64,000 bases of DNA. It comes from Candidatus Marinacidobacterales bacterium. GTDB taxonomy: Bacteria > Acidobacteriota > Vicinamibacteria > Marinacidobacterales > SMYC01. The notes under the pieces are model-generated. The model had not been told where the DNA came from and searched no databases. It saw nothing but the letters and a program-made list of their open reading frames with translations. Numbering within the stretch: position 1 is the first letter of the stretch; the number at the start of each line of letters is the position of its first letter. Below are positions 25,862-40,343 of this stretch, piece by piece. The stretch covers positions 1,088,001 to 1,152,000 of the forward strand of contig CBDCYI010000004.1 in the NCBI GenBank assembly GCA_965224085.1, given 5' to 3'. The position numbers and the translations under genes were made by a program.

Positions 25862-26509
25862 TTATTCGACGGAAAGACCGGTCGGACACGCGACGCCCGT
25901 TCCGCCGAGGCCGCAATAGCCTCCCGGGTTCTTCGCGAGATATTGCTGGTGGTAGTCCTCGGCGTAGTAGAACTCCCGCGCCTGAAGAATCTCCGTCGTG
26001 ATGGGATCGTAGCCAGCCGCGCTCAGCCGCTCTTGGTAGGTTACGAGAGAAGATTCTGCCGCCTGCGCTTGCGCTTTTGAATGGGTATAGATCTCTGAGC
26101 GGTATTGGGTGCCGATATCGTTTCCCTGGCGCATGCCCTGGGTCGGATCGTGGGCCTCCCAAAACACTTTGAGGAGCTCTTCATAGCCGATGACACTCGG
26201 ATCGAACACGACCAAGACGACCTCGTTGTGACCCGTCCGTCCGGAGCAGACTTCGTGATAGGTGGGGTTCGGGGTGGAGCCGCCCGCATAGCCGACCGCG
26301 GTCGTGTGCACGCCATCGATCTCCCAGAAGACTTTCTCGGCTCCCCAAAAACACCCGAAACCGAACATCGCGGTCTCGAACATTTCTGGAAAAGGCGGCT
26401 TCAAAGGATTCCCGTTCACGAAATGCGTGTCCGGAACAGCCATTGGCTCGGCGCGGCCTGGAAGAGCGTCTTCTGGTGTCGGTAGTGTTAGCTTCTTGGT
26501 CAGAAACAT
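25862..26509 (-). CDS. msrA: peptide-methionine (S)-S-oxide reductase
   Basis: [38 protein letters not shown] and [12 protein letters not shown] 26509 with RBS GGAGG. Confidence 0.97.
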
Positions 26510-26567
26510 CGTGTCCTCCGCACGCCAAGTCTCGCGCGGCGTGCGGAAAGACGCAAGTCTTTCCGGG

Positions 26568-27095
26568 CTATCGAAAGGCCTCTCGCGCTTTGATTTTCGC
26601 GTCGAGGAAGTCCGCTCGCGGGACGTGCAGTAGCTCGGAAATCTTACGGACGAGATATTCCTCGCTCGGCAGAAGCTGCGCATCGGCGAATGCGACACCC
26701 CATAGGTATTGGACGACGGTCTTTTTCTGCTCGGGCGTGTAGTGCCGATCGACGAGGTTCGTGAACTCGTGGATGCGTTTCGACTGTCGCACTTCTTCCT
26801 CGGCGAAACGGACCACGGCAACGGCCTCGTCTTCCATCAGACCAAGAACATCCCGCACCCCCGCCGAGACCGCGTTGAGCTCGTCGGCGCGCAAGTCGAA
26901 GTCACAGCGCGCTACCTCGAGAAGAAGGACGGCCGTCGCGAGTTGGAGCTGGCGGTCCGACACGCGTGGTCGCTTCGCGTCTGCGCCCTCCACTTTCGCG
27001 GCAAGCTGCTCGTCGAAGAAATCCTGGATGGCTCCGAGGAGCGACTCTTTTAGCTTTAGCTCGGCCCGCAACTCGGGCGTGAGAGGTTCGGACAT
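26568..27095 (-). CDS. TerB family protein
   Basis: [35 protein letters not shown]. Confidence 0.85.
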
Positions 27096-27161: not shown

Positions 27162-30100
27162 CTATTCGGCGCGCAGGTTCGCGAGCAGCGGCGTGCGAAA
27201 GACCGCGGTCATAGCGAGCAACGAGGACAGGAGGCCGCTCACGACGACAGCACCAAGCAGCAGGCCCAAAAAACCGCCGCCGAAGCTACCGCCCCGGGAG
27301 ACGAGCGCAGGTGCTATGGCTACCATTGCGGCGAGACTTCCTGTCAGAAGGCCGAGGAACAAAAGGAGACCGTTCTCCGCGGCGATCATGAGCGAGAAAT
27401 GGCGGTTTTCATAGCCTACGGCTCGCAGAAGCGCGAGCTCGCGCCGCCGCTCGAGCACATTGCGTAGAAGTACGGCCGCGAGCCCAAACGTTCCGAGGAC
27501 CAGCCCCAGTCCTCCTAGCGTTTGGAAAGTGGACAAGTAGGTGTTCTCCACCCGGTGGTAGCCCTCGAGCTTCTCGCTCGTGCTTTGGACGTCGAGCCCG
27601 AAATCCGCGAGGCGGGCTTCGAGAAGCGCGCTCGCTTCGTCAACACTCGCGGGAGGCGTGTCGACGAGGAAGAAGCGAAAACCATCCGCTTCGGGAAAGT
27701 GCGCGAGGAAATTCTCTTCCGAGCTCAGAAGCTCGCTTTGAAAGATGCTATCGGCGAGCGTCGCTACGAGACGTAGCCGAAGGGGAGTCTCCCCTATCCG
27801 TGACAAAACAAAGTCCTCGCCGAGGCCTAGATGGAGCACGTAGGTCATCGAGTTCGCGTCACCGATTACAGGGATGACCGGACCGACGCCGTCGGAAAAG
27901 CTCTTTCGGAGCAATAGCCAGGGATTCGCTTCCTCCTCTGGCGTCTCGGCGAGCGATGCCGAGAAGCGAAAGCGGCCCTCCTCGATGAACGCACCGTTGG
28001 CCGCGAGAAGTCGTGGGTTCTGCGGCCGGTAGAGATTCAAGCAGCTAGCGTCATCTCCGGGACGCAACCGGAAGGTCTGGATTTCCAGGTCGAGTGCGTC
28101 CGGATCCTCCGGATAGGGCAAGTTGGCGGCGTCCCGCCCCTCGAGCGTGTTCGGGTCCCAGTGGAGCGGAAGAAGCGACTCCGCCATGAGCGGATAGCCG
28201 CCACTTCCAGAATCACGGGCGAGGTCCACGGCCCGATCGTTCTTGCGAAACCCGTCGACGGCGACGATGGTAAAGCTCGCGAAAGCAATGAGTGCAACCG
28301 CCGTGAGACTTCGACCCGGGCGGTAGGTCGCGTTCCGGAAGCCGAGCCGTGCCATCGCTCCGGCACCTTGCCCGGAGACGACGCGCTTGGCCTCCGCGTT
28401 CAACGAGAGCCATTGAAACAACAAGAGCGAGACGAGAAGCAGGTTCCCGGCGCCGAAGAATCCTGCGACTTCATTGACGGCGCCCGTTCCTGCGCCCGCG
28501 ACGAGCAGCAAGCCGAGCGCTGTCGCGCTCCATGCGAGCCGTGACGCCCTGCGGGAGCTTCGCAGCTTGGACGCCGCCGTCTCACCACCGGTCTCGCCAG
28601 CGAGCAAGTTTCGCGACGAGATCTTTTCGAGATGACGGAGCGTCCAAGCGATCGCCAAACAAGCAACGCCGACGCCGCCTACGACGCCGATAAACAGCGA
28701 AGCCGCGCTAACGTGAAGCGTTAAAAGGCGCGTTCCAACGGCATCGACCCACCACGTGCGCAATCCGTACATGATGAGCCACCCGTAAGAAACGGCGATG
28801 ACGATACCGACAAGGCCCCCTATCCCCGACAGGACGACGCCTTCGAGCGTGAACAAGCGCCGCACGCGTTGCATGGGAAAGCCGAGCGCAACGAGTGTTC
28901 CGACTTCGCGAAGACGCTGCTCGACAGAAAGCTTGAAGAAAAGCCCCGTGAGCAAAAGCGCGGCGACGACGAGGAAATAGCTGAAATATACGAAGTACTC
29001 ACCGAAGTCGGTCGCACCCTCGGACGCCCGCATGCCGTCGGCCCGCGCTGCAATCACAGAATATCCCAGAGCGAGCGGGTCGAGGCGCGCCCGCAAGCCT
29101 CGCTCGAAGCCCACGGCGTCCTCCGCCTGTAGGCTTACCCGAATCGAGGTCAGCTTTCCCTGACGCACGGGCCAAATTCTTTGCCCGCGCGTGAGACGAA
29201 TGAATGCCTTCGAGCTCGTGCGGTACTCATCCCAATATTCTTCGTCTTTGTCTCGAACGCGCCGAAGGTCGATGGGAAAAGGCGGCTCCCAGTCGCCGAG
29301 ATTATCGGCGCCCGATATGCCCGGATATTCCGGTGCTAGCTCGCGATCGACACCAAAGCCTTCCATCGGGATGACGGCGTCTACGATGAACTCCGCGCTT
29401 TCGGTTACGATAAGGCCATCGTCGCGCCAGAGGTAGTACTCCATCGTCAGCGCGTCGCCGCGTTTCGCCTCGAGATCGGACGCCGCCCATTCGTTGAGCA
29501 CGAGGCTCGGCGAGAGTATCTCTTCGGAAGGCACGAGGCTCTCATAAGTGCGGCTGTCGAGCGCCGTGACGAGAGAATACGGCACTTCCCTCTCGCCGAC
29601 GCGTAGCGTATTCGCGAGATAGGTCAGAATCGAAGTCGTCTCGAGCCCTCGTTCAGCCGCTTCGTCGCGCACTGCCTCAACGACGGGACCGCTCAGCATC
29701 AAAGCGCGCGATTCGATCGCGTAGCCCTCTCCGGAGTCGAGAGCGCGTAGCTTTACGCCCAAGTCCGAAAGCGTGGCCGTCTCCTGAAGCCTTGGCTCTG
29801 CAGCACCGCTCCCTGAGATCAGAATCGTATTGACGGTTCCTTCCTGCCCGAGATCTCTCTGCAAGCGCGACAGCGGCAGAAAAACGGCCTTCACGCTGTC
29901 TTGCTGAGGATAGAGCGAGAACTCGGGCACCGCTGCCGCCTCTTGCGTCAGCCTGAGCGTACGTCCGGTGTTTTCCTTGGAACCGTGGAGCGACCCTCGG
30001 GACACCGCAGAGGGCTGCTCCACCCTCAGCAGCAAAGTATCCCCGTCAGAACTTTCGAGCTCTTCCACGAGGCTCGGCGTCAGAGTGGCGCCGCGCTGGG

Positions 30101-30464
30101 ACAGCGCCGGATCCGCCACGCCGTGAAAGGCCCAAAACCGCGCATCCACTCCATAGACTTGGACATCCGCTCGCCGACGCCCGCTCACTTCATGCGTCAG
30201 CATCCCTTCGAAGGCAATGAGCGGAACGGTGTCAGGGCCCAACTCTTCAGCGAGGGCGTCGCGAAAGAAAGTGTTGGCCACGATAACGCTCTTGGTGTTG
30301 CCTAGACGTGCCAGGAAGAGCTCCCGCAAGCTTCCGCGAACAGAATCCCCTACGAGAAGCGCGCCGGTGAGAACCCCCACCGCGACGGCCACACCGAGCA
30401 CCACTGCAACGTTGGTCCGCCAAAAATACCGAAGGCTGCGCGCGACCAACTGCCCAAACGTCAT
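27162..30464 (-). CDS. FtsX/MacB-type ABC permease with duplicated architecture
   Basis: 1100 aa. Two TM1-periplasmic-FtsX repeats with [15 protein letters not shown] and [14 protein letters not shown] motifs. Confidence 0.92.
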
Positions 30465-31120
30465 TCGAGAAGAACTCCGCCCCTGAGCTCCGCGCGCCTT
30501 TTGAAGCGACTCGCGAGCGCTTCACTGTGGGTTACGACGACCAGGATTCGCTCGGCCCGGGCGTCGAGGTCGAGAAGCAAGGAGGCGACGGGTTCCGAGG
30601 TCTCGCCATCTAGATTGCCGGTCGGCTCGTCACAGAGAAGAAGCGTCGGATCGCGGATGAGCGCCCGCGCAATGGCCACACGTTGCTTCTCGCCGCCCGA
30701 GAGCTCCGCCGGGCGATGCGTCAGACGGTCCTTCAGTCCGACTTGATGAACAAGGGCCTCCGCACGCTCGCGGTAAGTGCCACGAGGGGCGACAAGAGTC
30801 GGCGCCAAGACGTTCTCGAGCACGTTGCACTGCGGAAGAAGACAATGATCTTGAAACACAAAACCGATTTTCTCGTTTCGGAATGCCGCGACCGCCTTGT
30901 CGTCGAGCGCGAAGGGGTTTTCGCCATCGAGCTCGACGACGCCCGAGGTGGGCTTGTCGAGCCCGCCGAGCACGAAGAGCAGCGTGCTCTTCCCGCCGCC
31001 CGACGGGCCCATGATGGAGAGAGCGTCGCCGCGCTCGAGCGTGAGCGAGATCCCCTTGAGAACCGCGAGAGGTTCTTTTGGTGTGGGAAAATTCTTGACG
31101 AGCTCCCGTGCTTCGAGCAA
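30461..31120 (-). CDS. ABC ATP-binding protein (LolD/MacB type)
   Basis: [37 protein letters not shown] and VTH. Confidence 0.96.
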
Positions 31121-31132
31121 AACCTCGACCTT

Positions 31133-32560
31133 TCAGGCCTCCTGATAGGCGCGGGCACGAAACAAAAAATCGATGATGTTCCCCTCGTGCGGCTGTAGCC
31201 AGTTGAGACGGATCGTTGGGACGGGACCGACGTTGAGTCGATCGATGTGGACGGCGTCTCGGAGCTGGCTTCGGAAACCCTCGTCCGATGTAATGGCGCT
31301 ACCCACCAACGTGTCGCCAATCGTACCGATCATCTTTTCCTGCGGGCAGTTGACGACGGAGACGAAGGGGAACATATATTCCTGGTTCGCGAGCCAATTA
31401 TCGGGAGACTCACAATGGATGACGGTGGGCCTCAAGTAATCGCACCGTTTATGGGGGACGAGCCGCGCTTCGTCCTCTCCTCGATACTTTCGCGTTACGT
31501 CCTCACTCCCCGCCTCTTCGAGGTGCCGGTCGATTTCATTCGAGATGGCCTCAGCGACACCTGGCACGGTAAAGGCTGCGAGCGCGCTTTCTGGGTCTTC
31601 CGGGGAGCGGGGAGCCACCGGCCCTAGGCGCTCCGCGATGGCTTTTGCTATCTCTTTCGTGTGGCGAGACGCCCAAATGCCGGAGCAGCTGATACAGCTT
31701 CGCCCGCTATTGATCAGTACACTGTCGACCATGACGTCGAGATAGCTCTCCCAGTCGTCCACGACGTCGTCACCGAGCAAAATCTTGCTGAAGCCCGGGC
31801 CGTGTACTTGAACGCGCGGGTCCCCTTTGTAGCGCTCTACCGTTGGTTGGCCGCCGAAGATCATGCTCCTCCTGCAGCTTTTGAGCACCGCGGCACCGAT
31901 GTCCCCGAGGCCCGGATAGATGGAAATCGTTTCCCGAGGCACACCCGCTTCAAAGAAAGCTTCCGCCATCCGATAGGGCGTCCACGGCTCCTGCGGCCCA
32001 GGCTTGAAGACGAGACCGATCTGGAGCGGTATGACCGGCGTCCACAGCGTGTGCACTCCCGGAGAGTTAGAAGGCAGCACCAAGCCGAGCACCGGTGTTT
32101 GAGCCTGATAGCTCAGCGTTACGCCGCGCTCTTCGACGCCGTAGCCGTTTTCGAGAATCGAAAGGTCCAAGCCGCGCGTGAGCGCATCGAGCACTTCGTC
32201 CATACGCGTCAGCACGAAATGGTTTTTCTCCATGTTCGCGCGGCACATGTGCTCGGGAAGCCCCGTCGTCGCGGACTGATACTTGACGAAATCATCGGGC
32301 CCTTGTCTGCCGTTTCCGAGTGGGAGCTCTTCGTTCATGTAGAGATCCGCGGCCCTTTTCACCATCTCGATGAGATCCCCTGGCGGGATCTCTCGCAGAA
32401 CGTCGCGCGCTCTTTGCGCTTTACGCATGTCGCGCTCGATTAGCCCGCCGCCTGCGAGGCTCACGGTGGCGAGCTCTTCACCCGTGTCGAAATGGACGAC
32501 GGTGTCTTTTTCCAAGCTGTCGTAGGGCTGTCCCCAACGAAGAACAGGAATGTCGATCAT
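31133..32560 (-). CDS. aldehyde dehydrogenase-fold protein (GriD/EhpG/acyl reductase-like)
   Basis: LPSNSPG, KPG, FGG, NSGRSC (catalytic Cys) and EYMFPF. The ELGG motif is replaced by VHGPG. Start at ATG 32560. Confidence 0.85.
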   Translation of the reverse strand: MIDIPVLRWGQPYDSLEKDTVVHFDTGEELATVSLAGGGLIERDMRKAQRARDVLREIPPGDLIEMVKRAADLYMNEELPLGNGRQGPDDFVKYQSATTGLPEHMCRANMEKNHFVLTRMDEVLDALTRGLDLSILENGYGVEERGVTLSYQAQTPVLGLVLPSNSPGVHTLWTPVIPLQIGLVFKPGPQEPWTPYRMAEAFFEAGVPRETISIYPGLGDIGAAVLKSCRRSMIFGGQPTVERYKGDPRVQVHGPGFSKILLGDDVVDDWESYLDVMVDSVLINSGRSCISCSGIWASRHTKEIAKAIAERLGPVAPRSPEDPESALAAFTVPGVAEAISNEIDRHLEEAGSEDVTRKYRGEDEARLVPHKRCDYLRPTVIHCESPDNWLANQEYMFPFVSVVNCPQEKMIGTIGDTLVGSAITSDEGFRSQLRDAVHIDRLNVGPVPTIRLNWLQPHEGNIIDFLFRARAYQEA

Positions 32561-32570
32561 GAGACCTGCG

Positions 32571-33674
32571 CTAGTAGACGCCGACCGTCGTGGCCGACGC
32601 AAGCTCCTGGAAGGGTCGAACGCCGCTGACGCCGTCCCACGGATAGGTTTCGTACGGCTCTTCCCGCTCGCCTTCGTCACGCTCGAGAAAGCCGGGCACG
32701 AAGAACTCTTTGGTTAATGTCGTGAGACGAACGCGGCCGGACTCACTGTAGCCGACCATGGTGCGCCCGTCATCGGGGTCGACGACTTCGATAACTGCCC
32801 GAGGCTGTGGCGCGTAATAAGTAATTTTGTAGCCATCGTGCGGCCCGACCGGCTTCGACGCCGCAAGGCCCATCAAAGTATTGCCGTAAGTCGGCGTGAT
32901 ATAGACGCCGTCGAGAAGCTCTTCAACCGCAAAGCGCGTCCATTGCGGGGTGAACTCGGTGCCACCGGAAAAAATACCCGTGAAACCGGCTTCCTTGAGA
33001 CTCGAGCCTTCGTCCTCAAGCCGTAGCGCGAAGGCCTCGAGGAGCTTGGGTGTTGTGAACAAAACCTTCAAGTCGTGCCCCGCACTCAAAAGCGTCATGG
33101 CTTGATCGATTACGTGGCTCTTGTACGCCTCGAGGTGCTCCGTCCAACCCTTATTGATGAGCTTGATGACCCATCGAGGATCCAAGTCGAGCCCGAAACA
33201 GATACCGCCGCGGTACTGCGCGAGATGCTCGACTGCGAGTCGCAAGCGGCGCGGCCCGGACGGCCCGAGCATGAGCCAATTCGCGCCCTTCGGGAAAGGC
33301 TCTTCAGGAAGGGTCTCGCTGAACAGCTCGTAGTCGATACGGAAGTCGTCGATCGCCACGCGGCTCTTGGGAATGCCCGTCGTGCCCCCGGTCTCGAAGA
33401 CATAGATGGGACGATCCTGATACGCTTTCGGTACGAAGCGCCTGAGCGGCCCCCCGCGGAGCCACTCGTCTTCGAAGAGCGGGAATCGCCGCAAATCCTC
33501 GAACGCTTGGATGTCTCCGCGCGGGTCGAAGTCGAGCTTCTCCTGGAAATCGAGCCAGAAGGGCGTCCCCGTCTCGGGATCGAAATGCCATTCCACAATC
33601 TCACGTACGTGGGCGTCGAGCGCCTGTTTGGCGCTCGCACTCTTTTCTTCGATGTCGGTGCTCAAGTTACTCAA
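32571..33674 (-). CDS. short adenylate-forming enzyme (EhpF/GriC-like)
   Basis: 367 aa. WHF.PETGTPFW, P-loop ETGGTTGIPK, YGNT and LERD; no C-terminal ANL lid domain. Confidence 0.75.
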   Translation of the reverse strand: MSNLSTDIEEKSASAKQALDAHVREIVEWHFDPETGTPFWLDFQEKLDFDPRGDIQAFEDLRRFPLFEDEWLRGGPLRRFVPKAYQDRPIYVFETGGTTGIPKSRVAIDDFRIDYELFSETLPEEPFPKGANWLMLGPSGPRRLRLAVEHLAQYRGGICFGLDLDPRWVIKLINKGWTEHLEAYKSHVIDQAMTLLSAGHDLKVLFTTPKLLEAFALRLEDEGSSLKEAGFTGIFSGGTEFTPQWTRFAVEELLDGVYITPTYGNTLMGLAASKPVGPHDGYKITYYAPQPRAVIEVVDPDDGRTMVGYSESGRVRLTTLTKEFFVPGFLERDEGEREEPYETYPWDGVSGVRPFQELASATTVGVY

Positions 33675-35014
33675 ACCGTGACGACTCCCGTTTCCACTTG
33701 CTGTTTTTCAGCAACCGGCTCCCGCGCAGCGAGTTTCTCGAAAACTGCGACTGACTGTCGCGCCATTTCCGAAACACTGTAGTGACGTCGTACGCCTTCG
33801 GAGGCTCGGCGCCCAAGCTTCTGGCGCTCGGACGCGTCCAAACACAAGCGTGCCAGTGTTTCTGCGAGTACAGCGGCATCGTTCGCGTCGACGATCAAAC
33901 CACCGCCGGTTTTTTCCACGATCTCGGCGAAAGCCCCCTTGCGCGGCTGGACTACCGGTGTCCCTGCCGCCATCGCCTCCAGGAGAAAGATCCCTTTCGG
34001 CTCTTGGTAGTCGGTCGGCACCGACGCCAAGGCCAGGGAGCGTAGGAAATCTATCTTCTCCTGCCGATCGAGCACGCCGTGATAGTGGAACTCGTCTCCG
34101 AGCCCGTAGCGGTGCATGTCGCTTTCAGCTTTGGCCAGATAACCGCGGTGCTCGCGTCCGAGGTAGCCCGCAACCTCGAGTCGCGTCGCAGGCAAATCGC
34201 TACGCTCGCGCAGCAACCGATAGGCCTCCACGAGGTTGTGAAGCCCTTTCTCAGGTGCTATGCGTGCGAAGTAGCCGATTTTGAGGGGACCCTCGTCGAG
34301 CTCAGGCGGATCCGCGGACTCGTAGCCGTCGAAGTTGATACCAAGCGGTACCATGGTCATCTTCTCCGCCGGGATCGCGAGAAGCTTACCCATGAATTCC
34401 GCGTAGTAATCGCTTACCGCTATGAACGCGTCGACGTGCTCGACTTGTTCTCGGATGAGCTCGATGGCCTCCGCCCGGTGGGTTTTCGGAAGACCATCGA
34501 GAAACAAGTCCTCCCCTTGGAGCGTACACACCACGGGCACCTCGAGCGCTCGTGCGAGCGGGAGCGCGAGGCCTATCATGAGCGAGTTGGGCAGGATGAT
34601 GACATCGGGCTTCGGGTGCTTCTTTAGCCAATCGGTCACGTTGCGGACTTCCTTCTTCTGAAAGCCGTGCTCGCCCCTCAACGTCGAGACGGTGAGCTCC
34701 GCTAGCTTTGCTGGGTCGGTTGAGACCGAGACTTTGCTCACGAGCTGCATGACCCATTTAGAGTCGAAGAGACGATCGATGAACTTGGGCGTATGGCGAA
34801 ACAGCGGGACGGTCTGCTGAAGATAAACATTCACTCCACCGTAGAGAACGCGCTCCTCGCTCACGTTGGGCTCGTCGGTGCGCGTCGGCGTGTAGATCGG
34901 TACCAACGTTACGTCGTGCTCTTGGCGGCGAAGCTCGGTCGCGAGAGCGTTGTCACGTAGACAACTCCCGCAATACATGTTGGCCGCGCCGGCGGTGATA
35001 GCCAGAATTTTCAA
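33671..35014 (-). CDS. glycosyltransferase family 4
   Basis: GYFARIAPEKG, EPKGIFLLEAMAAGTPVV and N-terminal TAGAANMYCGSC. Confidence 0.92.
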   Translation of the reverse strand: MKILAITAGAANMYCGSCLRDNALATELRRQEHDVTLVPIYTPTRTDEPNVSEERVLYGGVNVYLQQTVPLFRHTPKFIDRLFDSKWVMQLVSKVSVSTDPAKLAELTVSTLRGEHGFQKKEVRNVTDWLKKHPKPDVIILPNSLMIGLALPLARALEVPVVCTLQGEDLFLDGLPKTHRAEAIELIREQVEHVDAFIAVSDYYAEFMGKLLAIPAEKMTMVPLGINFDGYESADPPELDEGPLKIGYFARIAPEKGLHNLVEAYRLLRERSDLPATRLEVAGYLGREHRGYLAKAESDMHRYGLGDEFHYHGVLDRQEKIDFLRSLALASVPTDYQEPKGIFLLEAMAAGTPVVQPRKGAFAEIVEKTGGGLIVDANDAAVLAETLARLCLDASERQKLGRRASEGVRRHYSVSEMARQSVAVFEKLAAREPVAEKQQVETGVVTV

Positions 35015-35472: not shown

Positions 35473-36600
35473 TTACTCGTCCGTCCAGCTTCCCTCGAAA
35501 AGCGGCTCGAGCGGCAACGACTCGGCGCCGTTGTCCGTGCATACGGCATATTTCGAGCGCTCGGTCGCGTACATCGAAACGCCTGCGAAGTCGCCGTTCT
35601 TATTGGTCACGTAGAACGAGAGCCCGAAGCTCGGAAGGCCGCGACTGTTGAGAAGCCGCTTTTCGACCGTGTTCGCTTGAACCCGTTTCAACGCGGCCAT
35701 ACCGGCATCTTTCGGAGACGCACCGCGCCGCATCTCTTCGACGACGAAGAAGGAGCAAAGCCCGTAGAGATTCGCTTCACCCCGCCCGGTCGAGCCCGCG
35801 GCGCCGACCTCGTTGTCGACATAGAGGCCCGCTCCGAGGATGGGTGAGTCGCCGACGCGTCCCGGGATCTTCCATGCGAGTCCGCTCGTGGTCGTGACAC
35901 CGCAAACGTCTCCGTTCGGCCCCACACCGTCGCAGTTAATGGTGCCCCAGAAGTGCTCTTCATCGATGAGCCCTTCGCGCACCATCGCAACACCCGCTTT
36001 GAGGCCGGCCTCGGCGCGTTTTTTCGGGTCCAGATAGTGGCTCGGGTCGATGCGTCGCTTCCACTCGATGAAGCGCTCGCGCGAGTGTTCCGTGTTCAAA
36101 TCGTCTTCGATCGTAAATCCCATATGACGCGCGAAACTCTGGGCGCCGTCGCTGACGAGGAGGTGATGATCGGTGTGCTCCATCACCGCATGAGCTACCC
36201 GCGCGGGCGCTCGCACGCCTTCGATCGCGGCGACGCAGCCGGCGCGCTTTTTTGGGCCGTGCATACAGCACGAATCGAGCTGCACGACCCCGTCCGCATT
36301 CGGAAGACCGCCATAGCCGACGCCAGCCTCTGTCGGGTCAAGCTCCACGATCTCGACGCCCGCGATGAGGCTCTCGAGAACGTCTCGGCCACTCGTCAAC
36401 ATACGAAACGCGCGCTCGACGCAGGTCTCGTCACCGCCGTTCTTGTAAGTATTGCCATTGCCCGAGGCGATCACGACCGGCTTGACACTTTGCGCCGTGA
36501 TCATGGTCGGCGCTGCTCCAACCGTTTGCGAGGCCGCAGCCAAGCCAGCCGCGGCCGCCCCGGATTTGACGAACTCTCGTCGACTCAGTTTCTTGCTCAT
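35473..36600 (-). CDS. N4-(beta-N-acetylglucosaminyl)-L-asparaginase (Ntn hydrolase), Tat-exported
   Basis: SRREFVK signal, VGYGGLPN..VQLD, GTI nucleophile, TTTSGL..KIPGRVGDSPILGAG and TGRGE. Confidence 0.92.
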   Translation of the reverse strand: MSKKLSRREFVKSGAAAAGLAAASQTVGAAPTMITAQSVKPVVIASGNGNTYKNGGDETCVERAFRMLTSGRDVLESLIAGVEIVELDPTEAGVGYGGLPNADGVVQLDSCCMHGPKKRAGCVAAIEGVRAPARVAHAVMEHTDHHLLVSDGAQSFARHMGFTIEDDLNTEHSRERFIEWKRRIDPSHYLDPKKRAEAGLKAGVAMVREGLIDEEHFWGTINCDGVGPNGDVCGVTTTSGLAWKIPGRVGDSPILGAGLYVDNEVGAAGSTGRGEANLYGLCSFFVVEEMRRGASPKDAGMAALKRVQANTVEKRLLNSRGLPSFGLSFYVTNKNGDFAGVSMYATERSKYAVCTDNGAESLPLEPLFEGSWTDE

Positions 36601-36637
36601 GGTGACTACTTCCCTAAGTGCGGCATCATACATCAAA

Positions 36638-39266: not shown

Positions 39267-40343
39267 TTAGCCTGAGAGCGTCACCGGCTGGCGTCGCGAG
39301 CCCCAGCGCCCCGGATGTTCGGCGAAAACACCGGGGCATGTCGCGCCGCAGGAACGGCACCGTCCGGCCTCCGACAGATTCCAATCCGACAACTCGTACC
39401 AGTCGCGCCCGATAAGGATTTCTCCGCACGCGTGACAGTAGGTGCTCCCCCCGGCTTTGTCGTGGACGTTGCCGGTATAAGGGAAGCGAACACCATTTCG
39501 CGTAGCGATCGACCGTGCCCGGCTCAGAGTATCCGGGGGCGTGCTGGGCTTTTCGAGCATCTTCCAGTCCGGGTGAAACGCAGTGAAATGCATCGGTACG
39601 TCCGGACCCAAATTCTCGACGACCCACGCCGTCATTTCGTCGAGCTCACCGTCCGAGTCGTTCTCTCCTGGAATGAGAAGCGTCGTCAGCTCGAGCCAGA
39701 CATCCGTCTCTCGAGAGATGTAGCGCAGCGTGTCGAGAACCGGTGCGAGGGCACCCGCGCAGATTTTCTTGTAGAACCGCTCTGTGAACGCCTTCAAGTC
39801 CACGTTCGCAGCGTCGAGATGCGCGTAGAGCTCTTCGCGAGGCCTCTCGGTGATGTAGCCCGCCGTCACCGCGACCGCCTTGACGTCACGCGCCCGGCAA
39901 GCGTCGGCGACATCGACGGCATATTCGAGAAAGATGGTAGGGTCGTTGTACGTGAACGCCACGCTCCGGGACCCGTTCTCCGCGGCCGCGCGTGCGATCG
40001 CGTCGGGAGAAGCTTGGTCGGACAGCCGGCTCACTTCGCGCGACTTGCTGATGTCCCAATTCTGGCAGAACTGACAGGCGAGGTTGCAACCGGCCGTGCC
40101 GAAAGAGAGCACCGAGCTCCCCGGGTAGAAATGATTCAGCGGTTTTTTCTCGATGGGGTCGATGCAGAATCCGCTGGAGCGGCCGTAGGTTGTCAGCACA
40201 ACCGCGTCGTCTTCGCGCGCCCGCACGAAGCACATGCCGCGTTGGCCTTCGTTCAGCTTGCAAAAGCGTGGACAGAGATCGCATTGGACGCGCCCATCGC
40301 CGAGCGCGTGCCAGTACTTCGTGGCGACCACATCCGATGCCAT
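39267..40343 (-). CDS. amrS: AmmeMemoRadiSam system radical SAM enzyme
   Basis: CDLCPRFC..G.C.VR, DPIEKKPLNHF.PG, GCNLACQFCQNW, FTYNDP, AFHPD and YTGNV..TYCHACG. Confidence 0.95.
   Translation of the reverse strand: MASDVVATKYWHALGDGRVQCDLCPRFCKLNEGQRGMCFVRAREDDAVVLTTYGRSSGFCIDPIEKKPLNHFYPGSSVLSFGTAGCNLACQFCQNWDISKSREVSRLSDQASPDAIARAAAENGSRSVAFTYNDPTIFLEYAVDVADACRARDVKAVAVTAGYITERPREELYAHLDAANVDLKAFTERFYKKICAGALAPVLDTLRYISRETDVWLELTTLLIPGENDSDGELDEMTAWVVENLGPDVPMHFTAFHPDWKMLEKPSTPPDTLSRARSIATRNGVRFPYTGNVHDKAGGSTYCHACGEILIGRDWYELSDWNLSEAGRCRSCGATCPGVFAEHPGRWGSRRQPVTLSG

Follow-up and report, generated by a model that had tools for sequence, protein, structure and literature searches.

Five adjacent genes in a 64,000-nucleotide window of the genome of a Marinacidobacterales bacterium (contig C4 of genome G000; G000:C4:1088001-1152000) form the core of a larger system, of 10 to 16 genes, that is common to many Acidobacteriota and Planctomycetota. 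The window genome is 6.9 Mb and 95% complete, and its nearest named relatives are Acidobacteriota (93–95% identity). The five genes encode a family 4 glycosyltransferase (GT4), an EhpF-like adenylating enzyme (hereafter the ligase), a protein of the aldehyde dehydrogenase (ALDH) fold, an ATP-binding cassette (ABC) ATPase and a large permease. We found no description of this module in the open-access literature. Our preferred reading, to which we give a probability of about 0.42, is that the module converts an aromatic acid (probably 4-hydroxybenzoate or one of its ring-substituted derivatives) into a benzyl compound bearing a sugar tag, which passes the inner membrane and is bound as a cofactor or prosthetic group by secreted propeller proteins resembling those that carry pyrroloquinoline quinone (PQQ).

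Five Genes Within a Larger Module

The genes lie as the original prediction had described them: five co-oriented open reading frames (ORFs) on the minus strand (35014..27162). In the order GT4, ligase, ALDH, ATPase, permease, the junctions are a TTGA overlap, a 10-bp gap, a 12-bp gap and an ATGA overlap (both overlaps 4 bp). The longest ORF of the ALDH-fold gene begins upstream, at GTG 32680 within the preceding gene; we took the start to be ATG 32560. A scan for promoters and terminators gave signal at chance level. Because the ligase, ALDH and permease genes occur once each in the window genome and hundreds of genomes carry the set, the association is not a matter of chance.

Are the five genes inherited together? 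Among 250 genomes drawn across the window's phylum (the unpublished G073 is included and counts as one negative), the ligase occurs in 66 and the permease in 69; 65 have both and 180 neither. One genome, with a divergent copy (34%), has the ligase only, and four have the permease only. In a hand-picked subset, GT4 was found in 38 of the 39 genomes with the permease and in 0 of the 41 without it; for the ALDH the counts are 36/39 and 0/23. A radical S-adenosylmethionine (SAM) enzyme of the module is present in 55 of the 250 genomes, each of them permease-positive. Positive and negative genomes stand side by side in eight families, so a single clade does not account for the pattern. Among 111 Planctomycetota, a close ligase occurs in 21, of which 20 have the permease. 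The ligase is single-copy, with 55–70% identity across the two phyla.

We also examined the neighborhoods of 80 ligase loci, the best-matching of 399. The permease is present in 49 of the 50 ligase-positive genomes that hold 50 of these loci, and the ALDH adjoins the ligase in 67/80; among the 13 misses, seven are cut by a contig end (less than 1.3 kb downstream) and six are true separations. A GT4 orthologue lies within 10 kb of the ligase in only 12/80 loci and the permease in 10/80, many loci being contig-cut. The co-occurrence of the five genes, on which the original prediction depended, is borne out by genome-wide counts; they are co-inherited but form no fixed operon. Nor are they a complete pathway, as had been supposed: the neighborhood survey gave approximately ten further conserved partners.

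These partners were counted in 20 mapped regions, picked mostly for a ligase near a permease. The ALDH and ligase recur in all 20, the permease and ABC ATPase in 19 each, GT4 in 17, an iron-containing alcohol dehydrogenase (Fe-ADH) in 13, a symporter and the radical SAM enzyme in 10 each, a thioesterase, an EamA-like protein and a halogenase in nine each, and a TonB receptor in eight; each of five propeller types recurs in 8 to 14 regions. In two Planctomycetota (G370 and G404), one operon holds propeller 740, propeller 500, symporter, ligase, ALDH, Fe-ADH, propeller 390, radical SAM, chorismate-lyase-like, halogenase, GT4, thioesterase, EamA-like, PaaK-like, ABC and permease genes. Near-complete operons occur in G371, G352, G090, G055 and G177. 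The radical SAM enzyme belongs to the HemN family (best match ChuW/HutW, under cut-off), the linked TonB receptor passes the cut-off of the siderophore-receptor family TIGR01783 (225 vs. 223.5 bits), and a MarR-like regulator and the sodium symporter are linked to the module. In the window genome orthologues of most partners are present but scattered (Table 1), with 41–54% identity.

The Probable Reductase Pair

The original prediction took the second protein for an EhpF relative without the C-terminal lid domain of ANL enzymes, and the assignment stands. Its residues 19–356 match EhpF (3l2k/3hgu), the sole solved relative, in a PDB search; EhpF has 366–369 amino acids, and the top 120 homologues span 351–387 amino acids (in a search restricted to 201–643). 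The match to PF00501 (AMP-binding) is weak (E 3.5e-5, under cut-off). The motifs ETGGTTGIPKS, PTYGNT and ERD are present. In a quick tree of 56 rows, EhpF itself being left out, the module ligases form a single group (SH-aLRT 99) on a long branch, separate from EhpF-like proteins of Streptomyces, haloarchaea and other planctomycetes; in this tree long branches meet and the root is unsure.

In ordinary ALDHs the LE(x)GG motif supplies the Glu that acts as general base for thioester hydrolysis. The ALDH-fold protein is remote from these enzymes (best E 2e-12 among solved structures), and its His253 aligns with that Glu (VHGPG vs. VLECGG or VWLEAGG of solved ALDHs). Asn165, Glu191, His253 and the catalytic Cys289 are invariant in the 24 aligned orthologues, which come from two phyla, and Lys186 is kept. 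With His in place of Glu, thioester hydrolysis would be hindered, which fits a role in acyl transfer and reduction as in GriC/GriD. The protein is likely an acyl-AMP or acyl-enzyme reductase, in line with the reductase-type partner proposed for it, and we hold it highly probable that ligase and ALDH-fold protein work as a reductase pair. On sequence grounds the pair is a further member of a known enzyme type. A LuxE/LuxC fatty-acid reductase was considered and rejected, no LuxE or LuxC family match appearing in Pfam/NCBIfam scans.

Related pairs exist outside the module. ALDH relatives of 26–28% full-length identity adjoin EhpF-like genes on Streptomyces and haloarchaeal plasmids, and the Streptomyces pairs accompany 3-deoxy-D-arabino-heptulosonate 7-phosphate (DAHP) and isochorismate synthases. 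On plasmid NC_014299.1 of the archaeon Halalkalicoccus jeotgali, symporter, EhpF-like (36%) and ALDH-like (27%) genes stand in the order of the planctomycete operons. Divergent EhpF-like proteins (32–38%) of 11 Planctomycetota and G075 come with no permease and, where tested, no ALDH, and were set aside as a separate system. Those of G401, G326, G368, G318 and G075 have as neighbors genes labeled by eye as MMPL/RND-like, U32-peptidase-like, class III aminotransferase-like and SDR-like, and are a second undescribed system. In G358 (C2:194700-201100) two di-heme MauG/peroxidase-domain genes of approximately 1000 amino acids stand between ligase and ALDH, and one cluster of G257 (C4:28289-33119) has GT4 flanked by a pair of ligase copies (72% and 64%) that belong to different tree branches.

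The Glycosyltransferase and the Type VII ABC System

The GT4 belongs to a module-specific subfamily whose closest solved relative is matched at only E 4e-13. A consensus of 31 orthologues shows an unusual conserved N-terminal YCGSCLRD (CxxC) motif together with the E-x7-E motif.

The permease, fused and duplicated, is the best marker of the module and is single-copy. The ATPase lies within 1.5 kb of a permease match in 23 of 30 loci; its best NCBIfam family is LolD, at 234 bits below the cut-off of 308. In a profile comparison the permease is about equally far from LolF, LolCDE, MacB and BceB/PsdB. The label "MacB-type exporter" therefore holds for the class of ATPase and permease and is otherwise too narrow, MacB not being the best match. 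No membrane-fusion protein (MacA) is among the recurring clustered neighbors, a survey that included no hidden Markov model (HMM) scan aimed at MacA. The system does not look like a LolCDE lipoprotein transporter either, given the LolD score and a lipobox-like site in only two of 101 propellers.

Secreted PQQ-Like Propellers

The propellers form a multi-copy family present in 68 of the 69 genomes with the permease and in 0 of the 181 without it, with at least six matches in most positives. The count comes from a protein search with one window-genome propeller (E up to 1e-35); stops within matches were read as alignments overrunning the shorter C-terminus of the homologues. A DNA-pattern count of the propeller motif in 251 genomes was discarded for its noise in GC-rich genomes, with hits in controls and in wrong codons. 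In the 111 Planctomycetota, propellers occur in 29 genomes, the permease in 30 and both in 28 (28 of the 31 with either). By regular expressions, a signal of the cleaved type precedes the W-x-x-W/F-R-G motif in 86 of the 101 propellers. The window genome has 17 motif-bearing propellers.

A model of one propeller (pLDDT 89) predicts an eight-bladed PQQ-like fold, with BamB (Z 35.0), YxaL, Rv3035 and tetrathionate hydrolase as the closest modeled matches (Z 33–35). The fold by itself shows no function. Each propeller orthologue group keeps many invariant polar residues, and the propellers fall far under the TIGR03075 and TIGR04528 cut-offs. Separately, the window genome has at least 13 strong matches (E ≤ 1e-33) to TIGR04528, the "acido-empty-quinoprotein" family, none above cut-off, and no PqqB or PqqC match. 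Outside the module, G000:C9:592000-600000 holds a gene for a QhpG-like flavin-dependent monooxygenase followed by a quinohemoprotein amine dehydrogenase-like cluster (by eye).

Seven of the mapped clusters have no ligase (G314, G340, G360, G308, G410, G377 and G136). Alongside the permease they hold propellers, an NHL protein, a ferredoxin, a membrane polyferredoxin and NuoEF- and NuoG-like genes; some also have GT4 and terpene-cyclase-like genes. The ferredoxin, polyferredoxin, NuoEF and NuoG set is a candidate for a membrane chain that passes electrons to a periplasmic propeller. This gene content supports a redox role of the propellers, and in this variant the aglycone may be different or salvaged.

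Clues to the Substrate

What is the acid? That it is aromatic we consider probable; that it is of hydroxybenzoate type is about an even bet. EhpF and GriC serve phenazine-dicarboxylate and aminohydroxybenzoate pathways, respectively (PMC3175449, PMC10179220). The module halogenase matches PltA (E 5e-56) and carries the motifs of PltA/ChlB4-type enzymes; in a consensus of 16 sequences aligned to PltA, GxGxxG, the active-site Lys, WxWxIP and FxDPxxSxG are all present. The PaaK-like second ligase is nearest to aryl-CoA ligases. The chorismate-lyase-like protein is so named for a resemblance in language-model features only (Atlas score 0.94–0.97).

Planctomycetales strain 10988 makes and releases 3,5-dibromo-p-anisic acid, for which the authors proposed an adjacent chorismate lyase/halogenase pair, baaA/baaB, without genetics (10.1101/723874). 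In this genome we find the module's chorismate-lyase-like (6190660-6190145) and halogenase (6189875-6188709) genes adjacent to each other on the ligase's strand, 11.5 kb downstream of it. The order along that strand is ligase, ALDH, Fe-ADH, propeller, radical SAM and then the pair, which gave the genome's sole matches to the module halogenase and lyase queries. Bmp5 is an enzyme of the flavin-containing monooxygenase (FMO) type, and a search of strain 10988 for the FMO family returned a 37-residue match only. Judged by sequence, the module's pair is very probably baaA/baaB. The same cluster (G009:C1:6190700-6196400) also contains GcvH-like, ferredoxin, squalene-hopene-cyclase-like (DADDT motif) and polyprenyl synthetase genes. 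Terpene genes recur in the ligase-less clusters of G360, G340, G377 and G136, and there are none in the window genome.

A Proposed Pathway and Its Alternatives

In the pathway that we propose, the acid would be supplied by the chorismate-lyase-like protein or, where this is missing as in the window genome, taken up by the TonB receptor and the sodium symporter. The ligase, by homology to EhpF and the precedent of GriC and EhpF, would form the acyl-AMP. The acyl group would pass to Cys289 of the ALDH-fold partner, as its conserved residues suggest, and be freed as the aldehyde with NAD(P)H; the linked Fe-ADH would then reduce the aldehyde to the alcohol. The families of the PltA-type halogenase, the HemN/ChuW-like radical SAM enzyme and the PaaK-like ligase/thioesterase pair point to optional tailoring. 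GT4 would add a sugar, and the type VII ABC system might extract the product or load it on the periplasmic side, acting as LolCDE does and not as a MacAB–TolC pump. Finally, the propellers, which are co-inherited with the module, would take up the product. We lean slightly toward the propellers as recipients, and a redox-cofactor role of the product is doubtful. It is tempting, if speculative, to hypothesize a new organic redox cofactor, a glycosylated and variably halogenated or methylated hydroxybenzyl or quinone compound. It would be made in the cytoplasm, a dedicated type VII ABC machine would load it into a large family of "empty" PQQ-like periplasmic propeller enzymes, and 3,5-dibromo-p-anisic acid might be its shunt product.

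Many secreted "PQQ-like" or "BamB-like" propellers of Acidobacteriota and Planctomycetota have no assigned function. Their exact co-inheritance with the module leads to a testable claim, that a single pathway equips all of them. On the redox-cofactor hypothesis, the module would be a counterpart of the PQQ and mycofactocin systems in approximately one in four of the Acidobacteriota and Planctomycetota sampled.

Several observations weigh against this reading. Related genomes are not independent, and the co-occurrence tallies overstate the association. The window genome, 95% complete, shows no match for a chorismate-lyase-like gene or an orthologous halogenase. The chorismate-lyase-like protein matches neither PF04345 nor PF01947 in HMM searches, and its Atlas neighbor clusters bear chorismate-lyase families in only 11–19% of members. 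The equation with baaA/baaB is our inference: the available text of the paper states no coordinates and treats BaaB as similar to Bmp5 (10.1101/723874). Among modeled fold matches, PQQ dehydrogenases rank below the BamB group (Z 28–30; PedH Z 29.8, rmsd 2.6, 364 aligned). The 34 propeller paralogues share only invariant Trp, Gly and Pro columns and Arg4 (90%), with no common cofactor-binding residues seen. Finally, 10 of the 30 permease-positive Planctomycetota have no ligase match, and 0/10 have the ALDH, while the propellers are mostly kept (G136 is alike). GT4, ABC ATPase, permease and propellers can therefore exist without the reductase pair, and such genomes need another aglycone or salvage.

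That last point favors the first alternative, in our view unlikely, in which the product is an envelope glycolipid or glycoconjugate with an aryl, alkyl or terpenoid aglycone, moved like Lol or Lpt cargo, with propellers that serve as scaffolds or carriers in the way of BamB and not as cofactor enzymes. The survival of the GT4–ABC–permease core without the reductase pair, the best match of the ATPase (LolD), the profile matches of the permease (LolF, LolC and LolE) and the top predicted fold match of the propellers (BamB) agree with it, as do the terpene-cyclase-like and polyprenyl-synthetase genes within the strain 10988 cluster and several ligase-less clusters. However, terpene genes are missing from most clusters and from the window genome, no acyltransferase or carrier protein is among the recurring neighbors, and a soluble ligand would better account for the uptake genes and for propellers that are multi-copy and differ in their polar pockets. 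Even if the product is an envelope glycoconjugate, the module is a widespread uncharacterized pathway, and it would assign the first described planctomycete metabolite to a larger one.

Could the product instead be a secreted aromatic metabolite (a metallophore, redox shuttle or signal), exported and then re-imported, with the propellers binding or processing it? A linked TonB receptor over the siderophore-receptor cut-off, the linked sodium symporter and MarR-like regulator, and the release of dibromo-anisic acid by strain 10988 (10.1101/723874) would fit. The single copy number, the conservation over two phyla and a gain and loss strictly in step with that of a large paralogue family resemble primary metabolism, though; the receptor is in only eight of the 20 mapped regions, and the neighbor survey, made without an HMM scan, showed no recurring membrane-fusion protein beside the permease. 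We judge this alternative improbable.

We think it very improbable that the module scavenges and remodels a planar cofactor such as PQQ for the propellers, by import, carboxylate reduction, glycosylation and re-export. PqqC is above cut-off in just three of 80 module genomes, PQQ import is reported for Vicinamibacteria (PMC12124388), and the window genome is rich in PQQ-dehydrogenase-like genes while giving no PqqB/PqqC match. Against this, the linked receptor is not PqqU (42.6 bits vs. a cut-off of 1200), the chorismate-lyase-like, halogenase and aryl-CoA ligase genes indicate a benzoate, and the canonical PQQ ligands were not seen among the conserved columns of the 34 propeller paralogues. 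Least credible is a catabolic module in which an aryl glycoside or alcohol is imported and oxidized via Fe-ADH and ALDH to the acid: TonB receptor, symporter, alcohol dehydrogenase, ALDH and PaaK-like ligase do occur in aromatic catabolism as well, but His replaces the Glu required for thioester hydrolysis, the known homologous pairs are reductive (PMC10179220), GT4, halogenase, radical SAM enzyme and the outward type VII ABC system are biosynthetic, and no ring-cleavage gene is among the recurring neighbors.

Comparison with Known Systems

The closest parallel to the reductase pair is EhpF/EhpG of the D-alanylgriseoluteic acid cluster of Pantoea agglomerans Eh1087 (PDB 3L2K, 3HGU, 3HGV), which likewise has a lid-less ANL enzyme of equal length with an adjacent ALDH-fold partner. 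Unlike EhpF/EhpG, the module pair is tied to GT4, a type VII ABC system and propellers; the sequence comparison is with EhpF. The original prediction saw no phenazine core. PhzA/B is not among the recurring genes of the mapped clusters and gave no match in five module genomes, including the window's, an absence made weak by the lack of any PhzA/B match in the control genomes.

In grixazone synthesis, GriC, an AMP-binding protein, and the partner GriD reduce an aryl acid to the aldehyde (Suzuki et al. 2007, via PMC10179220). This is the likely mechanism of the module pair, the likeness being one of description. No 3-amino-4-hydroxybenzoate synthase had been predicted, and the GriH-type family PF01959 indeed matches in none of the five module genomes, the window's among them, while the control matched in three archaea. 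The module differs from the grixazone cluster.

The pair baaA/baaB, an adjacent chorismate-lyase-like gene and flavin halogenase gene, is probably the module's own. It is described as a two-gene cluster, and the available text has no mention of ligase, ALDH, Fe-ADH, radical SAM or propeller (10.1101/723874). Neither gene was found in the window genome.

The PQQ and mycofactocin systems each consist of a cofactor biosynthesis set plus expanded client dehydrogenases. The module shares their logic, in that a single set of biosynthetic genes is strictly co-inherited with a family of paralogues that are candidate clients, and also a radical SAM enzyme, glycosylation (mycofactocin) and the PQQ-like propeller fold. 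It differs in having no precursor peptide or PqqB/C and in its other enzymes, and its cofactor role is a candidate one. With type VII ABC systems (LolCDE/LolF, MacB, BceB/PsdB, YtrF) it shares a LolD-class ATPase and an FtsX/MacB-type permease; the module permease differs in being fused, duplicated and 1100 amino acids long, with matches to solved members at E 1e-4 to 4e-8, and its putative clients are not lipoproteins.

Features of the Locus

Table 1. Core genes and motifs in the window, and module partners elsewhere in the window genome (positions with a contig prefix, C4 or C11)
Feature	Position	Strand	Basis
GT4 glycosyltransferase, 447 aa	33671..35014	-	Pfam/NCBIfam; PF00534 E 2e-27
EhpF-like adenylating enzyme, 367 aa	32571..33674	-	PDB EhpF E 5.5e-43; motifs; tree
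ALDH-fold protein, 475 aa from ATG	31133..32560	-	PF00171 Aldedh E 6e-19
LolD/MacB-class ABC ATPase, 219 aa	30461..31120	-	ABC_tran E 1e-34
Duplicated FtsX/MacB-type (type VII ABC) permease, 1100 aa	27162..30464	-	FtsX x2 + MacB_PCD
GT4 Cys15-Gly-Ser-Cys18 motif	34961..34972	-	Sequence and conservation
ALDH-fold catalytic Cys289 codon	31694..31696	-	Sequence; invariant 24/24
ALDH-fold His253 codon, where ordinary ALDHs have the hydrolytic Glu	31802..31804	-	Alignment to solved ALDHs; invariant 24/24
Two propellers, Fe-ADH and propeller 390	C4:1057288-1063144		
TonB receptor	C4:1046959		
Radical SAM enzyme and thioesterase	C4:1577954-1579729		
Symporter	C11:323051		
PaaK-like ligase	C11:1626798		

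The five genes are flanked by TerB-like (tellurite-resistance-like) and msrA genes 3' of the permease and by a gene for an asparaginase-2 with a Tat signal 5' of GT4 (window positions 25862-27095 and 35473-36636). These flanking genes are linked to the set in close relatives only (four and seven of the 80 loci) and were excluded from the module. Further along, at window positions 39267-40343, there is an ordinary radical SAM enzyme of the AmmeMemoRadiSam system (TIGR04337, above cut-off).

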